Of a stretch of DNA of 64,000 nt, positions 1 through 61,810 are shown one piece after another. The stretch covers positions 16,376 to 80,375 of the forward strand of contig CADCJW010000001.1 of assembly GCA_902801845.1 (NCBI GenBank), in the 5' to 3' direction. The stretch's first letter is position 1; each line of letters begins with the position of its first letter. The DNA comes from an uncultured Eubacteriales bacterium (lineage in GTDB: Bacteria; Bacillota; Clostridia; Christensenellales; CAG-138). Under the pieces are notes generated by a model. That model did no database searches, had not been told where the DNA came from, and worked only from the letters and a program-made list of their open reading frames with translations. A program made the position numbers and the translations under genes.

Positions 1-811
1 GATCATAGTTCAGCTTCCCCATCGCATAGGGCACCAGCTCGTCCGCTGTGCCGTGGATGAAGAGGAAGGGGAGATGGGTCCTGTCAAAAGCATCCTGACA
101 GTTGGTGGCGGTGATGGAGTATCCGGCCAGAAGCCTGGCCCACAGATCCATGGCGGGCAGCATGGGGAAGACCGGGACCTTGTAGGATTGGGTGAGGGCC
201 GTGGCAATCACGTCCCTGGGGGAATAGTAAGCGGAATCGGCGATGATGCCCTTTGTGTTTGCGGGCAGATCGAGGCCGGAGGCCATGATGACCGTGGCCC
301 CGCCCATGCTTTGCCCATAGAGGAAGAGGGGCAGATCGGGGTGTTTCTCCGCCAAAAGCTGGGCCCAGGCCCCGATATCGCACCGCTCCTTGACGCCAAA
401 GGTGATATACTTGCCCTCGCTCTTTCGATGGGCGCGCATGTAGGGATAGAGGACGGTGTAGCCGCTTTCATAGAGGTGCTTGGCCACCAAAGCGAACTCT
501 CGGGCGGGCCAGGACCTAAACCCATGGACAGCCACGATAAGGCCGATAGGGTTTTCCGCTTCGATCAGCTCCGCCGCCAAAGAAAGGCCGTCCTTGCTTT
601 TGATATGGAGTTCCGTCTTCGGCTTGCTCTCGAACCAGTCCACGCCCAGCTGCATCCGATCTCGAAAGCGATATCGACCGGAGGGGACCACGGTGCTGGC
701 CCGAAAGAGCTCGGTACGGTCCCGGCGGGTGCCGCCCCGCAAAAAGGCATACAAGCTGGCGGACATGACAAAAAGGAGCAGCAGTAACACTGCGATCAGA
801 GCATAAATCAT
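1..811 (-). CDS. alpha/beta-fold hydrolase (esterase/lipase-like), 3' end cut by the window edge
   Basis: Absent from the ORF track because it runs off the left edge. My translation from the ATG at 811-809 gives MIYALIAVLLLLLFVMSASLYAF (TM) ... VAVHGFRSW ... LFLYGQSMGGATVIMASG (GxSxG nucleophile elbow) ... LFIHGTADELVP. It replaces the + strand ORF 53..787. Confidence 0.75.
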   Translation of the reverse strand, partial: MIYALIAVLLLLLFVMSASLYAFLRGGTRRDRTELFRASTVVPSGRYRFRDRMQLGVDWFESKPKTELHIKSKDGLSLAAELIEAENPIGLIVAVHGFRSWPAREFALVAKHLYESGYTVLYPYMRAHRKSEGKYITFGVKERCDIGAWAQLLAEKHPDLPLFLYGQSMGGATVIMASGLDLPANTKGIIADSAYYSPRDVIATALTQSYKVPVFPMLPAMDLWARLLAGYSITATNCQDAFDRTHLPFLFIHGTADELVPYAMGKLNYD

Positions 812-937
812 AGAAACCTCAAATACACACGATGCTTTACTATACCACAGTTTTTACCATTTTCAAAGAGAAATCTTTTGATTCTTGACGATAGGTGGTT
901 TCTTGGGTACAATCAAAAGAAAAAACGGAGGCGCAGC

Positions 938-2062
938 ATGGCTTTTCTCCCTGAAAACACAAAAAAACTGGGCTTCGGCCTCATGCGGCTGCCCGTGCTG
1001 GACGGCAAGGACGATCGCATCGATCTTGACCAGGTCGCCCGGATGGCCGATCATTTCTTGGAACAGGGGTTCACCTATTTTGATACGGCCTATCCCTATC
1101 ATAACGGCTTCTCCGAACGAGCGGTCAAGAGCGTGTTGGTGGACCGCCATCCCCGGGACAGCTTCCTGCTGGCCGACAAGATGCCCATCTTCCGCATCAC
1201 GGAGGAGAAGGACGCGCCCATCCTCTTTGAGGAGCAGCTGGAGCGGACCGGCGCCGGGTACTTCGATTTTTATCTGCTCCACGCCATGGGGGCGGATCGC
1301 ATGAAGACCGTACGGGACTGCAAGGTGTGGCAATACCTGCTTCAGGAGAAGGCGCGGGGCCGTATCCGCCGATTGGGGTTTTCCTTCCATGATTCGCCTG
1401 AGGTGCTGGATAGCATGCTGACGGAGCTTCCCGAAGCCGAGTTCGTTCAGCTGCAGATCAACTATGCTGACTGGGAGGATGGGGAGGTGCAATCTCGCCG
1501 CTGCTATGAGGTCGCCCAAAAATATGGGAAACCGGTGATCGTCATGGAGCCTGTTCGCGGCGGGAGCCTGGCCTCTGAAAAAGCGGTCTGCGCGCCGCTT
1601 TTGAAGGAGGCAGATCCTGAAACATCTCTGGCTTCCTGGGCGCTTCGATTCGTAGCCAGCCTTCCGGGGGTGGCCATGATCCTTTCCGGCATGTCCAATC
1701 TGGAGCAGGTGCAGCAGAATACGGCTCTGTTTGACGATATGAAGCCGTTGTCCGAAAAGGAGGAGGCTATCCTGGTGAAAGCGGCCGAAATGCTTCGCTC
1801 GGCCGGCACCATCCCCTGCACCGGCTGCAGGTACTGCGTGGAGGGGTGCCCGGTAAAGATTGACATCCCGGATATCCTGGACCTGCTGAACGAATACGCT
1901 CGCTTTGGGTCGCTGCAGAGCGCCAAACGGAGCTATGGCTTCAGGACAAGGGGGAAGGGGGTTGCCTCCGCTTGTGTCGAATGCGGGCAATGTTTGGACG
2001 TGTGTCCACAGCATATCGAGTCGGCGGTGCATATGGCAAAAGCGGCGGAGCTGTTTGAATAA
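938..2062 (+). CDS. aldo/keto reductase with C-terminal 2x[4Fe-4S] ferredoxin-type domain
   Basis: LGFGLMRLP and FDTAYPYHNG are AKR motifs. The C-terminus carries CTGCRYCVEGCP and CVECGQCLDVCP. Start moved to the ATG at 938 (MAFLPEN), which follows AAACGGAGG. Confidence 0.85.
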   Translation: MAFLPENTKKLGFGLMRLPVLDGKDDRIDLDQVARMADHFLEQGFTYFDTAYPYHNGFSERAVKSVLVDRHPRDSFLLADKMPIFRITEEKDAPILFEEQLERTGAGYFDFYLLHAMGADRMKTVRDCKVWQYLLQEKARGRIRRLGFSFHDSPEVLDSMLTELPEAEFVQLQINYADWEDGEVQSRRCYEVAQKYGKPVIVMEPVRGGSLASEKAVCAPLLKEADPETSLASWALRFVASLPGVAMILSGMSNLEQVQQNTALFDDMKPLSEKEEAILVKAAEMLRSAGTIPCTGCRYCVEGCPVKIDIPDILDLLNEYARFGSLQSAKRSYGFRTRGKGVASACVECGQCLDVCPQHIESAVHMAKAAELFE

Positions 2063-2063
2063 T

Positions 2064-2164
2064 TGGGGATGTAGGGACTCGAATTCGCGCCTGCGGGCTT
2101 GGTCGGGATGCGGCTCTGGAGCGCTACCGGCGCTCCATTCACTACCGCATCCGTTCGAGTCCCT
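2064..2164 (-). repeat. tRNA-Val-derived palindromic module: 20-nt sense copy of the tRNA 3' segment plus inverted arm and nested hairpins
   Basis: 2064..2083 is identical to 2219..2238 (tRNA-Val T-loop to discriminator). An 11-bp stem pairs 2073-2083 with 2154-2164. Inner helices are GGATGCGG/CCGCATCC and GGAGCGC/GCGCTCC. It does not fold as a cloverleaf. Confidence 0.6.
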
Positions 2165-2180
2165 TTATTACTCTCATACC

Positions 2181-2207
2181 AAAGAAAAAGCCACCCAAAT
2201 GGGTGGC
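2181..2207 (-). terminator. intrinsic terminator of the tRNA-Val unit
   Basis: Minus-strand GCCACCC-ATTT-GGGTGGC followed by TTTTTCTTT, starting 9 nt after the tRNA 3' end. Confidence 0.8.
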
Positions 2208-2215
2208 TATTTCTT

Positions 2216-2292
2216 TGGTGGGGATGTAGGGACTCGAACCCTAGACCTCTGCGATGTGAACACAGCGCTCTAACCAGCTGAGCTACATCCCC
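2216..2292 (-). tRNA. tRNA-Val (anticodon CAC), CCA encoded
   Basis: Reverse complement GGGGATGTAGCTCAGCTGGTTAGAGCGCTGTGTTCACATCGCAGAGGTCTAGGGTTCGAGTCCCTACATCCCCACCA folds as a cloverleaf. The anticodon loop is TTCACAT. Confidence 0.93.
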
Positions 2293-2305
2293 AAGCGCAA
2301 GTAGG

Positions 2306-2334
2306 ATTATACAGCATCACTTCAAAATTTGCAA
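2306..2334 (-). promoter_or_regulatory. sigma-A-type promoter for tRNA-Val
   Basis: Minus-strand TTGCAA, 17 nt, TATAAT. The -10 ends 13 nt upstream of the tRNA 5' end. Confidence 0.7.
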
Positions 2335-2415
2335 GTCCTTTTTTTGAAATTGATTCGCTCTTGTTTCAAGCGGATACCTATGGTATGATTTTTCCACAGA
2401 AAAAGGAGGGCGTTC

Positions 2416-3654
2416 ATGATGAAAATAAAGGATATCAAACAGATTTTGAAAGACACGGCCTATCCGCATACGGCGGCGAGCCCCGAGGAAATGAAGTGCC
2501 TCACCTATCTAAAGCAAAGGTGCGAATCGATCGGCCTTTCCACCTGCGTGGAGAGCTTTTCCATCGAGCGAGCGAAGATCCATTCGGCCTCTTTGACGGT
2601 GGATGGGAAGGCGTATCCCTGCAAGGCCTATATCGGCTGCGGCAGCGGAACGGTGGAAGGACCGCTCTATTATCTCAGGAATACGGACGATCTTTCCTTT
2701 TCCCAGTGTAAGGATCATATCGTGCTCACGGACCAGCCCTTGAACATGTGGAACTATCAAGACATGCTGAAAAACGGGGCTTTGGGCTTCATCACCTTCA
2801 CCGGCCGGTACAGCTGCCCCGATCGGGATATCGACCAAAAGACGCTGCGTCCTGCCACCAGCCAGGGAAAGATCGTTCTGGGTGTCAATATCAATGTGAA
2901 GGACGCCATGCAGATCGTGGCGAAAAACGGTCAGCATGCCTGTATTGAGATCCAGCAGGAATCCTACCAGGCGGACGCCCACAACCTTATTGCGGAACTC
3001 CCCGGCGAAATCGACGAGTGGGTCGTGCTCACCGCCCATTACGATTCCACGCCCCTGTCCTGCGGCAGCTATGACAACATGACCGGCTCCATCGGTATAC
3101 TGGGCGTGGCGGAGCGGTTTGTGAAAGCTCCACACCGTCGTGGCCTGCGGTTCATCTGGTGCGGCGGGGAGGAGCTGGGCCTTTTGGGCTCCAAGGCCTA
3201 CTGTGCCGACCATGAGGGGGAATTGGAAAAAGTGGTGCTGAACATCAACCTGGACATGATCGGCAGTATCATGGGCAAGTTCATCGCCTGCTGCTCCGCA
3301 GAGGAGCGGCTTGTATCTTTCCTCGAATACACTGCGGATGAGCTTGGATTTCCCATCGCCGCTCGCAGCGGGGTCTATTCCAGCGATTCTACCCCCTTCG
3401 CGGACAAAGGGGTGCCCAGCCTCTCCTTTGCTCGGATCGCGCCGCCTACGGCCGGCTCCATCCACGAGCGGTACGATACGCCGGCCATCGTCTCTGCGGA
3501 GCAGGTCCTGATCGACACGGAGTTTATCGCCGGATTCACCGGCCGCATGGCCAACGCCGTCCGCTGCCCGGTGAAGCGGGAGATCCCCGAGAAGATCAAG
3601 GACAAGCTGGACGTCTATCTGAATCGCAAACGGGCGCCGAAACAACAGGATTGA
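2416..3654 (+). CDS. M28 family metallo-aminopeptidase
   Basis: TAHYDS, DNMTGS, GGEELGLLGSKAY and NLDMIGS zinc-ligand motifs. AAGGAGG RBS upstream. Confidence 0.85.
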   Translation: MMKIKDIKQILKDTAYPHTAASPEEMKCLTYLKQRCESIGLSTCVESFSIERAKIHSASLTVDGKAYPCKAYIGCGSGTVEGPLYYLRNTDDLSFSQCKDHIVLTDQPLNMWNYQDMLKNGALGFITFTGRYSCPDRDIDQKTLRPATSQGKIVLGVNINVKDAMQIVAKNGQHACIEIQQESYQADAHNLIAELPGEIDEWVVLTAHYDSTPLSCGSYDNMTGSIGILGVAERFVKAPHRRGLRFIWCGGEELGLLGSKAYCADHEGELEKVVLNINLDMIGSIMGKFIACCSAEERLVSFLEYTADELGFPIAARSGVYSSDSTPFADKGVPSLSFARIAPPTAGSIHERYDTPAIVSAEQVLIDTEFIAGFTGRMANAVRCPVKREIPEKIKDKLDVYLNRKRAPKQQD

Positions 3655-3675
3655 ACCCGAGCGAGAAGACACATA

Positions 3676-3703
3676 AAAACGGACGGGATCACCGTCCGTT
3701 TTA
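3676..3703. terminator. bidirectional intrinsic terminator
   Basis: AACGGACGG-GATCA-CCGTCCGTT flanked by an A-tract and a T-tract, between convergent genes. Confidence 0.7.
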
Positions 3704-3716
3704 CTATGCAAAAGCT

Positions 3717-4025
3717 TTATTCCTCCGGATAATCCTCCTCATACTGAGGACGGGCCTTGTGCTTCTTCTTTTTGCCTTTTTTGCCGTAGAACAGCTTCCA
3801 GGTGCAGATGAGGAAAAAGATTCCCAAGAGCAGCGCGAGGGCGGCGACGATCACGTCCAGATATCGGGTGACGAAGACCTGATCGCCCAAAAAGTGGAGC
3901 ATGGGATTGAATCCGTCCAAAATATAAAAGAGGATGTATACAACCGAGAGCACGATGGTCGCGTTGGCGACGATGGTGGAAATAAGTGTAAACCAACGGG
4001 GCAGAGCTTTTTTCTTTTTCTTCAT
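3717..4025 (-). CDS. small membrane protein with Lys-rich termini, function unknown
   Basis: 102-aa ORF with two clear hydrophobic spans. It starts 3 nt after the stop of the upstream gene, so it is probably co-transcribed. Confidence 0.55.
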   Translation of the reverse strand: MKKKKKALPRWFTLISTIVANATIVLSVVYILFYILDGFNPMLHFLGDQVFVTRYLDVIVAALALLLGIFFLICTWKLFYGKKGKKKKHKARPQYEEDYPEE

Positions 4026-4027
4026 GG

Positions 4028-5242
4028 TCAGTTTTCCTTTCCGCTTTCGACAATATAAACGATATCGCTTGTCTCACGTCCGTTGAGACCGTAGGAGTTT
4101 CCGTTGAAATACATGGCCGAGGAAGCGCCGCCGTCCATGTTATAAGCGGCCGCCATGCCCATATCGGCGCAGAGGATGGAAAGCTCGGACAGGGAAAGGC
4201 CCCTGTTTTTGCCGCGGCCATCCACGGTGATGAAGCAATAATGCCCGGGTTCATAGTAGCCGATCAGCGTCCGGGGGTTGGCGTCAAAGACGCTCTTGCT
4301 CATGGTGAACTTCTCCTTGGCCTCCCCGTTCGGCCCCAATAGAGCGGGCCCGAAATACCACATCTGCAGCGGCTCACGGGCGACGATGCTGTCGTGGTCC
4401 ACGGCTTGAGAGGAGATGTCCACGGTCTCCATCACACCGTCCGCATACAGGATGCACAGATCGCTGGTCAGCTTGTCATAGCGCTTGATCTCGATGCCGT
4501 TGCGATAGAACCAGCCGTGGCTGTTGGCGTAGGCGTTGAGGAAGTAGTCGGTGTTCACCCCCAGGATGCCGTTGTTGGCCAGGCACATCTCCTTGACCTT
4601 CCCGGTCTCGGAGGCCTTGGTGGCATAGGCGGTCCTCAAACTGCTGATGTCCTGGATATAGATGTCGGCCACCGTATAGGTCACCTTGTCGCGCATGCCG
4701 TCCCGAAGCTCTGCGCCGCAATTCGGGCAGGTGCCCGGCGCGTCGGAGAATTGCTTGCACTTGCTGCAGAAATACTTGGTGCAAGCGGACAACTCGATAG
4801 CCACGTCCGGGGCACGATACTCCGTGGCGGTGGAGACGAGGGTGTCGCTGAACTTCTCCGCAAACTTGCCTTTCAACAGGCCCTTAGGCTCGGGGGTCGG
4901 TTCGGGCGTAGGCTCAGGCGTGGGCTCCGGCGTTTCCGTGGGCGCAGGCGTCTCCATCGGTGCATCCGTCGCTTCTTCAGTCTCGGTAGACGCGTCGGGT
5001 TCCGTCGTGGCGGGGGCGTCTGTGGGCGCGGGCGTAGCCGTAGGCGCGTCGGTAGGCGCCGGTGTGTCCGTAGCCTTCGCTTCGATGACGGGGGCTTCGG
5101 GAAGATCCGGGAGTTCGATCTCCACCGGTTTCCAGGGGAAGAAGTGGAACACCTGGGCGCAGATCAGATAGGACAGCACACAAAAGCCCAGCAGGTCAAA
5201 GATGACCATGCGCAGGATCCTTTTTTTACCGGTCTTTTTCAT
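4028..5242 (-). CDS. phosphodiester glycosidase family protein (DUF2233/NAGPA-like), membrane-anchored
   Basis: N-terminal TM segment, a Pro/Thr/Glu-rich linker, and a CxxC...CxxC ribbon (CSKCKQF...CPNCGAEL). The C-terminal domain has NTDYF, NPRTLIGY..FITVDGR and AYNMDGGASS. Confidence 0.75.
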   Translation of the reverse strand: MKKTGKKRILRMVIFDLLGFCVLSYLICAQVFHFFPWKPVEIELPDLPEAPVIEAKATDTPAPTDAPTATPAPTDAPATTEPDASTETEEATDAPMETPAPTETPEPTPEPTPEPTPEPKGLLKGKFAEKFSDTLVSTATEYRAPDVAIELSACTKYFCSKCKQFSDAPGTCPNCGAELRDGMRDKVTYTVADIYIQDISSLRTAYATKASETGKVKEMCLANNGILGVNTDYFLNAYANSHGWFYRNGIEIKRYDKLTSDLCILYADGVMETVDISSQAVDHDSIVAREPLQMWYFGPALLGPNGEAKEKFTMSKSVFDANPRTLIGYYEPGHYCFITVDGRGKNRGLSLSELSILCADMGMAAAYNMDGGASSAMYFNGNSYGLNGRETSDIVYIVESGKEN

Positions 5243-6288
5243 TGGACAGTTTTATCCTTCACAAACACGAATTTACGCTGGAGCACGAAGCTCATGGGGT
5301 AGACGATCAGCTGCACGATGATGTAGGCCAGCCACTTGGGCACGCCGCAAAGCATCGTGAACAGGTACAACAGCCCGTAGTGGATGCCGAAGATGAACAC
5401 CGCCAGCACCACATACCGCAGGAAGCTGGTTTTGTTGTCCGTCTCGAACACCATCCGCTTGTTGAGCCAATAGTTCAAAACGGAACTGAGGATCCTGGAA
5501 ACGGCAGTGGAGAATATGAGCGACACGGCCCAGCTTTTGGTGAGCCAGGAGAGGAACAGGAAGAGGACGTATTCGAACAGGAAGCTAAGCAGGGAGGAGC
5601 TGACGAACATCAGGATCATCTTATAGATGCGCCAGCCGTCCCTAAGGGCCCGAAAATGGGAGGAAGCATTGTCCTCGATGTACACGGTCTCGATGGGTAC
5701 CTCAACGATGGGGATCATCTCCCGGCAGCAGTAGAGGAGCTGACTGATCTCATATTCGTATCGATCTCCTTTCAGGGAAAGCATCCGGGGGATGTTGTCC
5801 CGGGAGAAGGCCCGAAGGCCCGTCTGGGTATCGTAGACCTTTACGCCGGTGGAGATAGCGAACACGAACCGGGTGATGGCGTTGCCGGCCCGGCTCTTGA
5901 AGGGCACGTTGCCCGTGAACCGGCGGGAGCCGGTGACCAGGGCGTCCCGATGGGAGCGGAAGGCTTCCGCCACCCGGAGCACGTCGTCCGGCAGATGCTG
6001 GCCGTCCGCGTCTACGGTGATCACACCCTCGGCGTCGGGGCAGTGGTCATAGATGTATTGAAAGGCTGTCTTCATGGCAGCGCCCTTGCCCCGATTCACC
6101 TCGTGGTGCAGCACGGTGACAAGGGGAAGGTCGCTCAGAGCAGCAAAAATAGGCTGACAGTCCGCACGGCTGCCGTCGTCCACGATCACAATGGGAAAGT
6201 TCGTTTTGGAAATCAGCGTATTTACGACACCAGTCAGCTTCTCATCCGGCTGGTATGCGGGTATCACGATCATCATAATTTTGGTCAT
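5239..6288 (-). CDS. family 2 glycosyltransferase fused to a GtrA-like membrane domain
   Basis: VIPAYQPDEKL, VDDGS and VDADGQH (DxD) motifs, with a C-terminal 4-TM GtrA-like region. Start placed at MTKIMMIV because the upstream in-frame Met lies inside the promoter -10. A start at 6276 is also possible. Confidence 0.8.
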   Translation of the reverse strand: MTKIMMIVIPAYQPDEKLTGVVNTLISKTNFPIVIVDDGSRADCQPIFAALSDLPLVTVLHHEVNRGKGAAMKTAFQYIYDHCPDAEGVITVDADGQHLPDDVLRVAEAFRSHRDALVTGSRRFTGNVPFKSRAGNAITRFVFAISTGVKVYDTQTGLRAFSRDNIPRMLSLKGDRYEYEISQLLYCCREMIPIVEVPIETVYIEDNASSHFRALRDGWRIYKMILMFVSSSLLSFLFEYVLFLFLSWLTKSWAVSLIFSTAVSRILSSVLNYWLNKRMVFETDNKTSFLRYVVLAVFIFGIHYGLLYLFTMLCGVPKWLAYIIVQLIVYPMSFVLQRKFVFVKDKTVQ

Positions 6289-6307
6289 TCTCCTAAAAAC
6301 TTGTCCC

Positions 6308-6316
6308 ATTATACCA
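6308..6316 (-). promoter_or_regulatory. extended -10 promoter element (TGGTATAAT) for the GT2 gene
   Basis: Minus-strand TGGTATAAT lies about 20 nt upstream of the AGGAG RBS. Confidence 0.55.
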
Positions 6317-6452
6317 CAGCGAGCGAAAAAAGGAAGAGCAAAAAGCCTGAACTTGTCACGGATTTGTAAACTGTTTGTAATATCGAGGGGATTCGTCTGG
6401 AAAGTGGGGAAGGTAGAGTATATGATGAATGCAACACTAGAGGAGTATATAC

Positions 6453-8114
6453 ATGGCCAGAAACAGAAAAAAATCAAAAAGGATTCAGCTTTATGCCTCC
6501 TTGGCAGCGGTGGCCGTTTTGGCCATCGCTCTCGGCGTTCTGCTGGGAGGGAAGATATCCGGCATCCTGTTTTCAGGGCAGGATCTGTTCGTGGACCAAA
6601 ACCGGCTGCCAGAGGCGACTCCCACCCAGATCCCGGTGACTTTGCCCCCGGTTGAGCAGCAGCTCACCATAGCGCCCCAGCCGGAGACCGCCGTCCCCAG
6701 CACCCCGGCGCCAACGGCGACGCCGGGGCCAACGCCCACATTGGACCCCTATTCCGAATTGGAGCAGGTGGCCGACACTGGCATGATGAACGGCATCGTC
6801 AACATCATGTTTATCGGCGTGGATTATGAGGCGGCGCGGATCGATAAAAACTGGGCAGGGAAGGACGGGAACTCCTTCCATTCCGATGTGATGATCGTCT
6901 GCGCGGTCAACTTCAACGAAAACCGGGTGGATCTTATCTCCCTGCCCCGGGACACCTATGCCGCCATCCCCGGTGTAGACGGGGTATATAAGCTGAACGC
7001 CGCCTTGAACTGCGGGACGGACGGCACGAACTACGGGCTGTTCTGTGAGAACGGGGAGGGATTCGAAAAGGTGTGCGAGGCTGCCGAATGGATGCTGGGC
7101 GGCATCGACGTGGATTACTATTACGCCGTGACCATGGAATCGGTCAAGCAGATCGTGGACATCGTGGGGGGCGTCTGGTATAACCTGGAGGGCAACTTCG
7201 ATAACGGCGGCCGGTATTATAAGGCCGGTTTCCAGTACATGGACGGGCAGGCCTGCCTCGACTATATGCGGGTCCGCAAGGGCGGCCATGGACAGCTGCC
7301 CACGGGCGATAGCAACCGGGTGAATCGTCAAAAGAACATGATGGTCACCATCTTCCGCAAGATGAAGGAGGAGAACATGGTCCTAAAGGTGCCTGAGATC
7401 CTGGCCGCCTTCGATGGGGCCCTGTTCACCAACTGCACGCCGGCGCAGACGGCGGCTTTGGCGCTCTTTGGGTATAAGCTGGACCCAGACAATATCGGCG
7501 CCCACTCCATGGCTGCGGACTCGGCCACGCTGTTCCACTGGAACTTCGTGTTCACCCGCCAGTCCGATCGGGTCAAGCTCATTAAAGAAATTTACGGCGT
7601 GGATGTAAAGACCCATCCCAAGTACTCCCTGGCATACGGGCGGTATACCTGGTGCAAGATGCTCGAAAAACAGTATATGAACATCTGCGACCCGCTCAAA
7701 TCCTATGTGCAAAAGAAGCTGGACGAGGACGAGCAGCTGTCCTCGTCGTCCGAGGGGGAGGGCGATGAATCATCCGAAAGCTATTCAAGGTATTCCTCCT
7801 CAGATCGGGAGCTGTTCTCGGAATACAAGTCAGCTCTGAGGGAGCTGAAGGATCTGTACAGCTCCGCGGACAAGGAGGCGAAGAAGGCGGCCAATCGTAA
7901 GAGCAATTCCTTGAACAGCGTCTCCAATTCCCTGCTGGATCAGATGATCCAGGTGCAGGATCTGGCTATCTCGGTGGCGCAGACCTTCGACTACACCAAG
8001 GTCAAGAACATCAGCAAAACCTGCTACCCCAACCAGACCCATACCAACTCGCCCTGGGCACTGGATTACTGGAACAAAAAGAAGTATAACGCTGTGAAAG
8101 TGAACTTCAACTAA
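6453..8114 (+). CDS. LytR-CpsA-Psr (LCP) family cell-wall glycopolymer transferase with long C-terminal extension
   Basis: N-terminal TM segment, then NIMFIGVD, SDVMIVCAVN and ISLPRDTY. GAGGAG RBS upstream. Confidence 0.85.
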   Translation: MARNRKKSKRIQLYASLAAVAVLAIALGVLLGGKISGILFSGQDLFVDQNRLPEATPTQIPVTLPPVEQQLTIAPQPETAVPSTPAPTATPGPTPTLDPYSELEQVADTGMMNGIVNIMFIGVDYEAARIDKNWAGKDGNSFHSDVMIVCAVNFNENRVDLISLPRDTYAAIPGVDGVYKLNAALNCGTDGTNYGLFCENGEGFEKVCEAAEWMLGGIDVDYYYAVTMESVKQIVDIVGGVWYNLEGNFDNGGRYYKAGFQYMDGQACLDYMRVRKGGHGQLPTGDSNRVNRQKNMMVTIFRKMKEENMVLKVPEILAAFDGALFTNCTPAQTAALALFGYKLDPDNIGAHSMAADSATLFHWNFVFTRQSDRVKLIKEIYGVDVKTHPKYSLAYGRYTWCKMLEKQYMNICDPLKSYVQKKLDEDEQLSSSSEGEGDESSESYSRYSSSDRELFSEYKSALRELKDLYSSADKEAKKAANRKSNSLNSVSNSLLDQMIQVQDLAISVAQTFDYTKVKNISKTCYPNQTHTNSPWALDYWNKKKYNAVKVNFN

Positions 8115-38794: not shown

Positions 38795-39043
38795 AAATAT
38801 GGGCTGTGAGAAAGAGGAGTACACTGGATTTCCTCTCAGAGAGGCGCTCGACGTGCTGCAAGGGCGCTGTGGAAGATCGGGTGGAAGGTCGCTTTTTAGC
38901 CCTGCGACGCGAGAGCCGGAAGGCGCGTAGTGTTGCACGCAGACGCTGCGTTATGGCTATGAGGGAAACGGGGGAGACCCTGTTTAACAAAGGTGGTACC
39001 GCGAGCGCCCGCTTCGTCCTTTGACGAAGGCGGGCGATTTGTT
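38795..39043 (+). promoter_or_regulatory. T-box riboswitch leader (tRNA-Val-sensing expected) with terminator/antiterminator
   Basis: Stem I elements GAGAAAGAGGAGTA and CAGAGAG. T-box sequence AACAAAGGTGGTACCGCG at 38986..39003. Terminator CGCCCGCTTCGTC-CTTTG-ACGAAGGCGGGCG plus ATTTGTT at 39006..39043. valS lies directly downstream. Confidence 0.88.
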
Positions 39044-42199: not shown

Positions 42200-42274
42200 G
42201 CTGGTGTAGCTCAATGGCAGAGCAACTGATTTGTAATCAGTAGGTTGAAGGTTCGACTCCTTTCACCAGCTCCA
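42200..42274 (+). tRNA. tRNA-Thr (TGT), CCA encoded
   Basis: GCTGGTGTAGCTCAATGGCAGAGCA... Anticodon loop TTTGTAA. Confidence 0.9.
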
Positions 42275-42295
42275 AACCTTGACAGCTTGATACAT

Positions 42296-42380
<85 letters not shown>

Positions 42381-42384
42381 ATAT

Positions 42385-42471
42385 GCGGGAATGGCGGAAT
42401 TGGCAGACGCGCACGGTTCAGGTCCGTGTGAAAGCGATTTCATGCAGGTTCAAGTCCTGTTTCCCGCACCA
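42385..42471 (+). tRNA. tRNA-Leu (CAG), long variable arm, CCA encoded
   Basis: GCGGGAATGGCGGAATTGGCAGACGC... Anticodon loop TTCAGGT. Confidence 0.9.
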
Positions 42472-42473
42472 AC

Positions 42474-42507
42474 AAAAAACAGAGTCCATCCGGACTCTGT
42501 TTTTTGT
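42474..42507 (+). terminator. intrinsic terminator of the tRNA operon
   Basis: ACAGAGTCC-ATCC-GGACTCTGT followed by TTTTTGTT. Confidence 0.85.
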
Positions 42508-42517
42508 TGCATGGAAT

Positions 42518-42567
42518 GGAACAGGACTTGAAGGGCGCAGGCGCGAATCAAGTCCTGTTTCCCGCAC
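42518..42567 (+). repeat. tRNA-Leu-derived palindromic module (minimal form): inverted arm, 16-nt loop, 20-nt sense copy of the tRNA 3' segment
   Basis: 42548..42567 is identical to 42450..42469 (T-loop to discriminator plus 1). A 12-bp stem pairs 42520-42531 with 42548-42559. The loop AGGGCGCAGGCGCGAA contains the motif shared with the Val module. Confidence 0.6.
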
Positions 42568-42595
42568 ATGTTAGCTCCAGAAAACTGACGGCAAA

Positions 42596-42940
42596 ATGAA
42601 CATAGGCATCGACTATTGGTGCAAAGTCGTTTATGAGGTCGGAACACCATTTGCAATCATCGCGTTTTGTTTGCATGAGGGCAATTTTCACATCATGGAG
42701 CTGCTTGTTAGACCCGAAATGCGTGGCAGAGGATATGGTACGTTGCTGCTTCGCGAGCTCCTTTCTAATGGAAAATTAATCATTGGTCATAAGATCGAAA
42801 AAGCCACTGCGATCGTTTTTTCGAACAATCGAGCGTCACGGAAGACTTTTGAAAAGGTTGGATTTACATCCGATGCTACGAACGGCCAGGATGACATAAA
42901 GTATCAGTATTTTTTGCAGCAAAAAGCAGAGTCGATGTGA
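42596..42940 (+). CDS. GNAT-family N-acetyltransferase, short and probably N-terminally truncated
   Basis: ELLVRPEMRGRGYGTLLLRELL (motif A, RxxGxG) and FEKVGF, but only about 35 aa precede motif A. No obvious RBS. The region is visibly AT-richer than its flanks. Confidence 0.6.
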   Translation: MNIGIDYWCKVVYEVGTPFAIIAFCLHEGNFHIMELLVRPEMRGRGYGTLLLRELLSNGKLIIGHKIEKATAIVFSNNRASRKTFEKVGFTSDATNGQDDIKYQYFLQQKAESM

Positions 42941-42953
42941 ACTCTGCTTTTAT
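42923..42953. terminator. bidirectional intrinsic terminator
   Basis: AAAGCAGAGT-CGATGTGA-ACTCTGCTTT followed by TAT, with an A-tract upstream, between convergent genes. Confidence 0.65.
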
Positions 42954-42982
42954 ATTCTAAGGATGGTTTCAGATTCAGACTC

Positions 42983-44491
42983 TTATAGCCAATTCCCGAA
43001 CAGCCCCCTGGCGATGGCCTTTCCAAGCTTGCGCCCGACCTTGTTCAGGATGGAGTTGGTGGCGGATTTCGCCACCTTCTTGGCCGCCTTTCCAACGGCA
43101 CTTTGCTGCTTCTTTTTTGAGGAGGCAGCTACTTTCTTTTGCTCCGCTACCTGCTTTTCAGCGGCCTTCTGCTCCGCTTCCGCCAGGGCCGCCTGCTCTC
43201 TTGCGTCTGCTTCCTCCTTCAGCTTCTCATAGGCGGAATACCGGTCCACCGCATCCAGATAGATGGGGTAGAGGGGGTCCTTTTCCAGTACCTGTTGCCG
43301 GGTCTGTTCCTGAGCCGGGGCCATCAAGCTTTGGGGCGGCAGGATGTTGGAGCGCTCCACCATGGCGGGGATGCCCTTTTCGTCAAGGAGGGAGACGAGG
43401 GCTTCGCCGGTGCCCAGGCTCAATATCTCCTTTTCCGTGTCCAGCTCGGGATTGGTCCTAAAGGAGTTGGCCGCCGCCTTTACTGCCTTCATTTCGGCGG
43501 GGGTATAGGCCCGCAGCCCGTGCTGGATCCGGTTGCTGAGCTGGGCAAGCACGTCGTTTGGGATGTCGGAGGGACTTTGGCTCACAAAGTAGATGCCCAC
43601 GCCTTTGGACCGGATCAGCTTCACCAGCTGCACGATCTTTTCGAGGAACGCCTTAGGCGCGTTCTGGAAGAGCAGGTGGGCTTCGTCGAAGAAGAACACC
43701 GCCTTGGGCTTCTCCGGGTCGCCCACCTCGGGTAAGCGCTCGAACAACTCCGACACCAGCCAGATGAGGAAGGTGCTGTAGACGAGGGGGCTCTGGATGA
43801 GCTTGGTGCTGTCCAGGATGTTCAGCATGCCGTGGCCGTCCTCATCCACCCGCAGCAAATCGGCGATGGAGATAGAGGGCTCGCCAAAGAAGATATTGCC
43901 GCCCTCGTCCTCCAATCGAAGCAGCGCCCGCTGAATGGCACCGATGCTCTGGGGCGTTACGTTCCCGTAGGTGGTGACCAGGCTACCCCTATTGTCAGAA
44001 ACGTAGGTGAGCATGGCCCGCAAGTCCTTCAGATCGATGAGTTCCAGGCCGTTGTCGTCCGCCACCCGGTAGACGATGTGCAGAACCCCCGTCTGGACCT
44101 CTGTAAGGCCCAGCAAACGGGAGAACATGAGGGGGCCCATGTCCGACACCTTGATGCGGACGGGGATGCCCTTCTCCCCGAAAATGTCCCAGAAGGCCAC
44201 GGGATATTCCCGATAGCTCCAAACCTTCTTGAGGTCGAAGCGATCGATCCGTTTCTGCATGTTTTCCGAATCCACTCCAGGCTCGGCAAGCCCCGACACG
44301 TCGCCCTTCACGTCCGCCAGGAACACGGGGACCCCCATGTCGGAAAAGCTCTCCGCCAGGACCTTCATGGTCACGGTCTTGCCCGTGCCGGTGGCGCCGG
44401 TGATGAGACCGTGGCGGTTGGCCATCTCAGGCAGCAGATATATCTTCTTCCCGTTTGCGCTGGCAATATAGGCTTTGTTCTCGAAAAACAT
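42983..44491 (-). CDS. DUF853/YjgR-type HerA-like P-loop ATPase
   Basis: GATGTGKT Walker A and VFFFDEAHLLF Walker B. Lys/Ala-rich C-terminal tail. Confidence 0.8.
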   Translation of the reverse strand: MFFENKAYIASANGKKIYLLPEMANRHGLITGATGTGKTVTMKVLAESFSDMGVPVFLADVKGDVSGLAEPGVDSENMQKRIDRFDLKKVWSYREYPVAFWDIFGEKGIPVRIKVSDMGPLMFSRLLGLTEVQTGVLHIVYRVADDNGLELIDLKDLRAMLTYVSDNRGSLVTTYGNVTPQSIGAIQRALLRLEDEGGNIFFGEPSISIADLLRVDEDGHGMLNILDSTKLIQSPLVYSTFLIWLVSELFERLPEVGDPEKPKAVFFFDEAHLLFQNAPKAFLEKIVQLVKLIRSKGVGIYFVSQSPSDIPNDVLAQLSNRIQHGLRAYTPAEMKAVKAAANSFRTNPELDTEKEILSLGTGEALVSLLDEKGIPAMVERSNILPPQSLMAPAQEQTRQQVLEKDPLYPIYLDAVDRYSAYEKLKEEADAREQAALAEAEQKAAEKQVAEQKKVAASSKKKQQSAVGKAAKKVAKSATNSILNKVGRKLGKAIARGLFGNWL

Positions 44492-61606: not shown

Positions 61607-61682
61607 GGGGCATTAGCGCAGTTGGTAGCGCGCCACAATGGCATTGTGGAGGCCAGGAGTTCGACTCTCCTATGCTCCACCA
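61607..61682 (+). tRNA. tRNA-Ala (GGC), CCA encoded
   Basis: GGGGCATTAGCGCAGTTGGTAGCGCGCCACAATGGCATTGTGG... with the G3:U70 pair. Anticodon loop ATGGCAT. Confidence 0.9.
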
Positions 61683-61683
61683 C

Positions 61684-61717
61684 AAACAAAACACCACCAT
61701 TCGGTGGTGTTTTGTTT
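61684..61717 (+). terminator. intrinsic terminator of tRNA-Ala
   Basis: AAACAAAACACCACC-ATTC-GGTGGTGTTTTGTTT. Confidence 0.85.
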
Positions 61718-61729
61718 ATATAAAAAGAT

Positions 61730-61810
61730 GGAGAGTCGAAGTGGATATGGTAGTAAATTGGTCTCATTTCGCGAGCCCGCGGGCGAGTGTTCGACTCTCC
61801 TATGCTTCCA
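61730..61810 (+). repeat. tRNA-Ala-derived palindromic module: inverted arm, 49-nt loop, sense copy of the tRNA 3' segment
   Basis: 61789..61806 is identical to 61659..61676 (T-loop into the acceptor 3' strand), followed by T+CCA. An 11-bp stem pairs 61730-61740 with 61790-61800. The loop carries GGATATGGTAGTAAATTGG and GCCCGCGGGCGAGTG, similar to the Val module. Confidence 0.6.

Follow-up and report, generated by a model that had tools for sequence, protein, structure and literature searches.

The tRNA-Leu(CAG) gene in a 64,000-nucleotide (nt) stretch of DNA from an uncultured Eubacteriales bacterium (assembly GCA_902801845.1, contig CADCJW010000001.1, positions 16,376 to 80,375 of the forward strand; hereafter the window) closes an operon of seven tRNA genes and is followed by a second, partial copy of its own 3' end. 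The 3' part of the gene itself is designated A and the displaced copy A_orig. Between them lie a palindromic terminator-like hairpin (T), a short spacer, an inverted arm complementary to the tRNA 3' part (A') and a core remnant. Beyond A_orig come an insertion with an acetyltransferase gene of the GNAT family and an older terminator (T'). The coordinates are collected in Table 1. The segment 42450-42547 is very probably a decayed copy, with its core internally deleted, of a family of small units that recur behind tRNA genes and are apparently undescribed so far.

Table 1. Features at the three unit-bearing tRNA loci of the window
Feature	Position	Strand	Description
tRNA-Leu(CAG)	42385..42471	+	ARAGORN and Rfam tRNA; final gene of the Pro-Glu-Met-Asp-Thr-Tyr-Leu operon (7 tRNAs) 3' of valS
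A, direct repeat 1 (attL-like side)	42450..42469	+	T-loop T55 to first C of CCA; exact 20-nt repeat
T, palindromic terminator-like hairpin	42470..42509	+	inverted repeat and DNA fold; perfect 18-nt arms 42470-42487 and 42492-42509
Spacer CATGGAATGG	42510..42519	+	acctggaatgg or acatggaatgg in relatives; terminal GG lengthens the arm with a 1-nt gap
A', inverted arm (AACAGGACTTGAA)	42520..42532	+	exact reverse complement of tRNA 42449-42461 (13 nt)
Core remnant	42533..42547	+	GGG, with which helix P2 starts, abutting CGCAGGCGCGAA, the final 12 nt of the 24-nt 3' motif
A_orig, displaced tRNA 3' copy (attR-like side)	42548..42567	+	without the CA of CCA
Insertion with 5'-truncated GNAT open reading frame	42568..42916	+	349 bp, 43% G+C; outside the unit
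T', older terminator once 3' of A_orig	42917..42951	+	direct repeat; 80% identical to T
Complete unit after tRNA-Val(CAC) 2216-2292	2064..2215	-	109.5 bits, covariance model
Val unit: terminator	~2177-2215	-	
Val unit: A'	2154-2164	-	
Val unit: core	2084-2153	-	3' motif 2084-2107
Val unit: displaced A	2064-2083	-	
Degenerate unit after tRNA-Ala(GGC) 61607-61682	61683..61806	+	18.4 bits; E = 6e-6, local search
Ala unit: terminator	61683-61719	+	
Ala unit: A'	61730-61740	+	ggagagtcgaa
Ala unit: core remnant	61741-61789	+	
Ala unit: A copy	61790-61806	+	

The two copies of the tRNA end agree over 20/20 nt (42548-42567 against 42450-42469), and the expectation in shuffled sequence is 0 even at 3 mismatches. 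An earlier reading of the letters made without database searches (the sequence-only reading) had noted this copy and had also placed the end of the identity correctly, after the first C of CCA (GCAC followed by ATG). The hairpin that it described is there as well. A' (42520-42532) pairs over 12 base pairs (bp) with the downstream copy at 42548-42559, and the structure folds at -29.3 kcal/mol (z = -4.9), with 0/200 shuffles as stable; if one 1-nt gap is allowed, the arms match at 14 of 15 positions (GGAACAGG against GGAAACAGG). The core remnant is short by about 50-83 nt compared with full units. ARAGORN and Rfam call an intact tRNA-Leu, and its part from the T-loop on (42450-42471) is read as supplied by the unit. 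The tiny unit bracketed by the 20-nt repeats provides the live tRNA with its 3' end and, as had been proposed, with CCA and terminator.

The arms of the T hairpin start within CCA, and an A-tract and a T-tract are present; judged by its sequence, T looks like a bidirectional intrinsic terminator. A consensus scan of 42250-43050 for terminators and promoters made no calls, the hairpin being missed because its A/T tracts lengthen the stem, an artefact of the tool. The sequence-only reading had placed a terminator and little else besides the arm and loop between the repeats. The terminator is present, but the story is fuller. A_orig joined to 42917-42951 matches A plus T (42450-42504) at 48/55 positions, and therefore an older copy of tRNA end, CA and terminator has been split between GCAC and CA by the 349-bp GNAT segment. 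The open reading frame (ORF) in this segment (42596-42940) begins at position 38/116 of Pfam Acetyltransf_1 and is therefore 5'-truncated; the segment has 43% G+C against 58% across the window. These values bear out the AT-rich, truncated gene of the sequence-only reading, and the gene is foreign-looking.

All three tRNA loci of the window carry a unit. The intact copy behind tRNA-Val(CAC) (2064-2215) represents the family better than the Leu copy that was flagged first, which reaches merely 12 bits under the covariance model. In the degenerate third unit, behind tRNA-Ala(GGC), the A copy matches the tRNA at 17/17 positions and the core is shortened to GGTAGTAAAT...GCCCGCGGGCGAGTG. The Leu and Val modules do share the motif that had been pointed out: the window contains CGCAGGCGCGAA exactly twice, at 42536-42547 (+) and at 2084-2095 (-), each time directly 5' of a copy of the neighbouring tRNA's 3' part. 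The 12-mer is, however, merely the tail of a conserved 3' motif of 24 nt. As a count the motif is weak, since 11/100 shuffles reach 2 matches at one mismatch or fewer. What matters is its identical position, which recurs at more than 70 other loci besides the Val and the degenerate Ala unit, so that the shared motif is reproduced well beyond the pair first noticed. The displaced tRNA-Val copy abuts the stop codon of a convergent gene for an aldo/keto reductase-ferredoxin fusion (878-2062), and this flank is kept at two other loci, L127 and L135, whose unit contents differ.

A full unit is about 150 bp long and non-coding; its structured core of 65 nt or longer ends in CCCGACCAAGCCCGCAGGCGCGAA and is followed by the displaced A. 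Read from the tRNA, its first half is made up of A with CCA, T and a short spacer, A', the 5' strand of helix P2 and (T)AGTGAAT. The second half comprises the P3 hairpin (loop CAGTG), AGAGC, the 3' strand of P2, CCCGACCAA, helix P4 (GCC-CGCA-GGC), GCGAA and the terminal A, which is often trailed by CCA and a terminator. GTGAAT, AGAGC and the 24-nt 3' motif are common to the Val module and to a long form of the Leu module described below. The evidence for the family comes mostly from metagenome-assembled genomes (MAGs) and metagenome contigs. A scan of a genome collection with part of the motif gave mostly chance matches in GC-rich phyla, but at least about 20 of the matches listed are true modules, all of them in Clostridia/Clostridiales MAGs from rumen, sheep and rabbit samples. 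A metagenome scan gave at least 70 loci, mostly from rumen, and the covariance model R1 built for the family finds 77 units, 72 of them distinct. In viral contigs, 36 matches to CCGACCAAGCCCGCAG were found, all in coding-like contexts without the rest of the module and therefore due to chance. Keyword searches of the literature returned general models only (tycheposons, a mention of rtT) and no description of such units.

Two variants of the core were recognised. In the first (L064, L127, L213) the 3' end reads CTGACCGAG-GGCCGCAGCC-GAGAGCGAA and the strands of P4 are swapped from GCC/GGC to GGC/GCC, a compensatory change. In the second (L251, L244, L010), to which the long allele of the window species belongs, the P3 loop contains a further hairpin of about 28 nt.

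That allele accounts for the form seen in the window. Contigs of the same species were recognised among metagenome contigs by an identical HerA-like (DUF853) neighbour or an identical GNAT gene. Four of them have the short form and four carry 83 extra bases between 42535 and 42536, where the loop reads GGG-ttcggaagtgaat...cagagctgcgcc-CCGACCAAGCCCGCAGcCGCGAA. L166, whose HerA protein is 97% identical, has a different terminator and a separate internal deletion, in which AGCAGGACTTTATAGCC is joined to CGCAGGCGCGAA. The short Leu module is one of several decay products. It is not a designed minimal form, and the "minimal version" of the sequence-only reading has to be replaced by an internal-deletion allele.

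Relatives differ at this locus in copy number. Every relative with a HerA protein 85-98% identical carries the module at tRNA-Leu, in 1 or 2 copies. Two loci that share the same HerA protein, L173 with one unit and L171 with two identical 152-bp units, differ by exactly one 152-bp unit, a copy-number polymorphism inside a single species. In contrast, L262, a 65% relative, is an empty site: it shares the seven-tRNA operon and has an identical 3' end of tRNA-Leu as well as a terminator, but lacks the module. The sequence-only reading had raised the question whether the module, the GNAT gene or both come and go as a unit in relatives: the GNAT gene varies independently of the module, and three lineages have three unrelated GNATs.

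Elsewhere the units are tied to tRNA genes in a fixed manner. An upstream tRNA gene in the same orientation was found in the fetched DNA for 51/77 units, the rest mostly touching contig ends, and the orientation of unit and tRNA agrees in 51/51. The first unit starts 22-52 nt past the tRNA, each later one lies about 150 nt further on, and an array can contain as many as four (L213, L220). The hosts belong to at least 12 tRNA species. The bracket of direct repeats, A equal to A_orig, was met at 50 or more loci. No unit has cargo between T and A', and 50 of the 51 loci with a same-orientation upstream tRNA have no large island between the repeats, as the sequence-only reading would have it. L146 is the one exception: there a later integrase element lies 5' of the units. 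Most host tRNAs are minor isoacceptors with C34 (Glu-CTC, Ala-CGC, Val-CAC, Leu-CAG, Gln-CTG, Pro-CGG, Ser-CGA), and the unit-bearing C34 genes are typically single or last in their operon.

The core helices are conserved in structure rather than in sequence. When 14 units from six tRNA types are aligned with MAFFT, 99.6% of the cells are paired and 11/15 of the P2/P3 pairs show double changes. Across the 72 distinct units the figures are 98.2% and 14/18 pairs, whereas slid controls are 22-50% paired. The 1052 cells of P2 and P3 contain 1020 Watson-Crick pairs, 12 G-T, 7 A-C and 13 others. Exact complementarity between A' and A has a median of 10 nt and a maximum of 20-22 nt in L135 and L198, where it spans the whole 3' end and CCA. 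As single-stranded DNA, a 152-nt unit folds into an A-T-A' hairpin and the core at -53.3 kcal/mol (z = -10.8). The near absence of G-T pairs indicates pairing at the level of DNA. A structure acting as a folded single strand or cruciform is favoured because the helices are almost purely Watson-Crick, the terminator leaves no room for a promoter behind it, and the units decay, duplicate and recombine like selfish DNA.

The same covariation could also come from an RNA. The units would then be cis-acting or processed elements in the 3' trailers of tRNA operons that serve the host in 3' processing, quality control or as a small RNA; in read-through transcripts A' would pair with the tRNA 3' half or with the downstream A, and the core would bind a factor. 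The strict co-orientation with the tRNA, the strong covariation combined with invariant single-stranded stretches (GGTAGTGAAT, AGAGC and the 24-nt motif), the persistence of the locus across species with HerA 85-98% identical and the significant stability of the RNA folds are all in keeping with this. However, the module stands behind a strong terminator-like hairpin with a spacer of 0-15 nt, too short for a promoter, and G-U would be about as rare as A-C mismatches, which is unusual in RNA helices. The truncated remnants, the tandem arrays and chimeras, the differing deletion alleles of a single species and the empty site of L262 are typical of selfish or decaying DNA. In addition, Rfam 15 finds only tRNAs and a T-box leader in the window and nothing credible in the Val and long Leu modules up to E = 10. 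We regard a trailer RNA as unlikely.

Units at different loci exchange parts. In one MAG the units at tRNA-Ser(GGA) and tRNA-Ser(CGA) (L158 and L146) have identical cores with locus-specific arms and terminators. Unit 3 of L213 is a chimera of two core types with a mismatched P2. Between two MAGs a whole unit is 100% identical, while its flanks are about 78-98% identical. Two further chimeras join the tRNA-Leu A next to HerA/HAD, as the right arm, to a left arm from elsewhere: the A' of tRNA-Gln in L170 (4047-4136, -) and the A' of another tRNA in L172 (4830-4921, -). The assemblies that contain them differ, and so do the points at which they join. With their breakpoints inside units, they look like chromosomal rearrangements, and therefore units at different loci recombine and rearrange the chromosome, unless both are assembly artefacts, which in principle they could be.

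The units themselves might originate and spread through replication template switching or gene conversion, with no dedicated recombinase. The nascent strand would fold back at the terminator palindrome and copy A into A', jump at a T-loop microhomology (TTCGAA-like) to a remote core and return to the local tRNA, duplicating A and T. Several observations fit this route: the two A-T copies are homologous at several loci (48/55 in the window; also L096, L146, L158 and L213), in the young-looking units of L135 and L198 A' has its full length (17-22 nt) and prolongs the terminator palindrome, the register of the junction between motif and A shifts by 1-2 nt, cores are identical between the locus-specific arms of L146 and L158, and at L119 two tandem units with identical A-T-spacer-A' have different cores. 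Loci where the terminators do not correspond speak against it. T1 differs from T2 at L099 and T2 from T3 at L167, the unit's terminator being unrelated to the displaced one in both, and at L056 the unit, lying within a P-arm/A/P'-arm junction with GGGTGTAA-type arm repeats on both sides, brings a terminator that the displaced A lacks. Unrelated or absent displaced terminators at L056, L099, L167 and L124 mean that the unit arrives with its own T. Moreover, a switch of so many steps can hardly be expected to happen again and again, at 12 or more tRNA species, and to produce arrays whose units are identical. We therefore rate template switching as less probable still.

Larger elements end in the same motif. 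At L146 a 6-kb element (702-6652) lies in tRNA-Ser(CGA) and encodes a tyrosine integrase, a helix-turn-helix regulator and an IstB/DnaC-like ATPase. Its arm repeats are of the TTTTACC type, and its right end, CCGACCCGCGAA followed by A, is a shortened unit motif; the end ...CAGACCGACCCGCGAA joined to TTCGAATCCC... corresponds to the module motif minus the P4 hairpin, and two mini units come next. The full 24-nt motif, CCCGACCAAGCCCGCAGGCGCGAA followed by A, also closes a 2-kb block of cargo at L124/L143. These sequences suggest that the motif may be the core-proximal end common to larger elements of the same recombination system. Together with L056, L099 and L167, they fit the insertion at A of a discrete unit made up of A-CCA-T-A'-core. 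At L056 (reverse strand, 531-556 and 797-822) and at L124 (about 6620-6650), copies of tRNA-Glu are flanked by TCTGGGTGTAACGCTGGGTGTAATAG (GGGTGTAA direct repeats), probably arm-type integrase sites of another element family at the same hot spot.

The shared ends also raise the possibility that the units are ordinary att scars, left by integrase islands or prophages whose interiors were deleted, the motif being the end of a P-arm and core with no role of its own. Besides the ends at L146 and L124/L143, truncated pieces of motif and A exist (L074, L127, L143), and partial tRNAs stacked at tRNA hot spots are well known, for example from tycheposons (bioRxiv 10.1101/2020.12.28.424599). Random deletion would not, however, give 70 or more near-constant units in which arm, core and arm span 90-94 nt in most cases, nor would it preserve three covarying helices or an inverted arm matched to the tRNA. 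The lack of cargo between T and A' in every unit does not suit scars, and neither A' nor P2/P3 is present in the larger elements with the shared motif. Scars are the least likely of the three alternatives.

A non-autonomous mini integrative element of the tRNA T-loop class, here decayed, is the best explanation of the whole, and as a complete chain of events we hold it to be evenly balanced between right and wrong. The unit would enter at the T-loop and exchange the 3' end, CCA and terminator of the tRNA for its own, pushing the original 3' end (42548-42567) downstream. Later arrivals would stack in tandem, either by repeated integration or by unequal exchange. Once A' pairs with A and the core folds into P2, P3 and P4, a single strand would be almost wholly self-paired, and this folded or cruciform DNA may be the form that a recombinase sees. 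The recombinase would act in trans from integrase-bearing elements with the same terminal motif at their right end, presumably recognising the hairpinned A'/A stem, the core and the motif. Cores would be exchanged between units by recombination, and units at different tRNA genes could rearrange the chromosome. The reading predicts a circle junction in which the core 3' motif is joined to A-CCA-T, and an empty site in which tRNA-Leu is directly followed by ATGTTAGC... The sequence-only reading of a tiny element between attL and attR thus appears largely right, and its interpretation as a whole is partly supported; that the repeats act as attL and attR, in excision and integration by a recombinase, is what we infer from their arrangement.

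A more specific form of the proposal, put forward tentatively and with considerable doubt, is that the 65-nt core travels between tRNA genes as a folded strand or cruciform. The arms would be a double-stranded mimic of the T-arm, renewed or retargeted at each locus, and a recombinase acting in trans would read the structure and the T-loop. Terminators, CCA ends and a portable site for chromosome reshuffling would be side effects.

Several points weigh against mobility of this kind. No recombinase gene was seen in or beside the units, nor in the remainder of the window. A tblastn search with two integrases found no homolog in the window or at other module loci, and relatives of the L146 integrase in IMG/VR (16 loci) showed no module, and no attR within the fetched DNA. 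BLAST of the Val module found no match in 50,697 phages and two marginal matches of about 30 nt in 72,556 plasmids, so that no autonomous parent was found. Neither a circle junction nor a precise-excision allele was seen, and all relatives whose HerA is 85-98% identical have retained the module at tRNA-Leu, a pattern closer to stable inheritance than to active mobility. The contents of L119 are not what simple serial integration predicts. An inverted arm would be superfluous in a classical double-stranded attP, GCGCGAA to the left of the crossover is unlike a T-stem half-site, and the reading does not account for the matching of the arms to each new tRNA. Finally, gene conversion from arm to arm, and not functional selection, could keep the inverted repeats paired.

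tRNA genes are classic landing sites of genomic islands, and descriptions of such sites deal with elements that carry genes and with the scars of these elements. Williams is said to have distinguished, in 2002, sublocation classes of the tyrosine integrases that target tRNA genes, the T-loop among them. The units resemble attL and attR of T-loop elements in having a direct repeat of the tRNA 3' end that starts at the T-loop, an insert that restores the tRNA end and older copies pushed downstream, and they have a terminal motif in common with integrase-bearing elements at the same sites. The locus is polymorphic as expected of such elements (L173 against L171, empty L262, the long, short and other alleles). 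Unlike T-loop integrase elements, the units are about 150 bp long and gene-less, with an inverted target copy, a covarying core and no cognate integrase identified. The 78-150 bp interval has no ORF; autonomous membership of the class is therefore excluded, and the units would be non-autonomous.

Folded single-stranded recombination sites are known from integron attC and from attP(+) of CTX phage, which is used by XerCD. The units are like these sites in their imperfect inverted repeats around a variable or structured centre, in Watson-Crick compensation that preserves structure over sequence with G-T nearly absent, and in hairpin arms that adjoin one junction after integration; use of a single strand by the units is presumed. 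attC has R''/R' boxes (RYYYAAC / GTTRRRY), which the units lack: their arms (...YTCGAA / TTCGAR...) are those of the tRNA T-loop and equal the tRNA target at each locus. The units follow tRNA genes and have no IntI gene, no cassette ORFs and no dif-like site.

REPINs, which depend on RAYT transposases, the PATEs derived from IS200/IS605 and MITEs have constant ends and are scattered between genes. Like them, the units are short, non-coding, multi-copy and self-complementary, are presumably moved in trans and decay to partial copies. Unlike them, the units have no constant inverted repeats and are not dispersed: all those with context lie at tRNA 3' ends, with target-matched arms and a target duplication of at least about 20 nt. 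The pdif modules of Acinetobacter plasmids and the CIMEs of Streptococcus carry genes and use constant sites with XerCD or the integrases of integrative and conjugative elements. The units share with both the layout of a segment between recombination sites without its own recombinase, and with pdif modules the inverted flanking sites, represented here by A' and A on either side of the core, an arrangement that would permit exchange of the cassette; but the "cassette" is a structured, non-coding core of 65 nt. The repeats linked to tRNA genes at E. coli tyrT, with rtT RNA (Rfam RF00391), are tandem units of about 150-180 bp, each starting with a tRNA 3' end, and we know of no inverted arm in them. 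The present units have the same tandem arrangement of about 150-bp units 3' of a tRNA gene, each beginning with the tRNA 3' end, but no match in sequence or structure (no Rfam hit).

Other identities were dismissed: known ribozymes and small RNAs (twister, hammerhead, hatchet, rtT, tmRNA-like) have no Rfam match here, a retroviral-type primer-binding site would not have the same sense as the tRNA and lack the TGG complement, TnpB/IscB omega-RNA and IS110 bridge RNA would need an adjacent nuclease or recombinase gene, of which there is none, and guide segments that do not pair with each other, whereas the two target-matching segments here are fully complementary, a retron msr/msd would need a reverse transcriptase, which is absent, a tRNA minihelix mimic does not fit arms that mostly span the T-loop and T-stem alone, and the GAGCCG stretch reminiscent of group II intron domain V is already paired in P2.

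A gene-less unit of about 150 bp with a covarying fold and target-matched inverted arms thus occurs at 12 or more tRNA species in uncultured gut and rumen Clostridia. Should it prove to be a hairpin att element mobilised in trans, recombination of folded DNA as in attC and CTX phage would extend to tRNA-targeting integrases. It would also show the smallest possible integrative parasite, one that persists by rebuilding the tRNA end and terminator, and provide a compact, retargetable recombination substrate. The units account for breaks of contigs and for chimeric joins close to tRNA genes in assemblies of rumen metagenomes, and annotation should mask or model them, for which the covariance model R1 serves.

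Some minor features of the tRNA-Leu locus stand apart from the unit. Unrelated GNAT acetyltransferase genes occupy the spot between tRNA-Leu and HerA in three related lineages (42568-42916 in the window, 4354-4845 in L167 and 4071-4540 in L174). In the window and in L167 the insertion interrupts the (copied) CCA end after its first C, ahead of CA, which suggests that the extreme 3' end of the tRNA is a separate, second hot spot of insertion. In L010, a contig of the same species, tRNA-Leu is preceded by AT-rich, promoter-like DNA (1-110) and not by tRNA-Tyr, and GCAGGTA, the 5' strand of its acceptor, does not match the 3' strand; either a further junction lies within the 5' part of the tRNA or the contig is an assembly chimera. 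Upstream of the operon, valS is preceded by an ordinary T-box leader (38797-39024, +) that scores 95 bits against a gathering score of 93.

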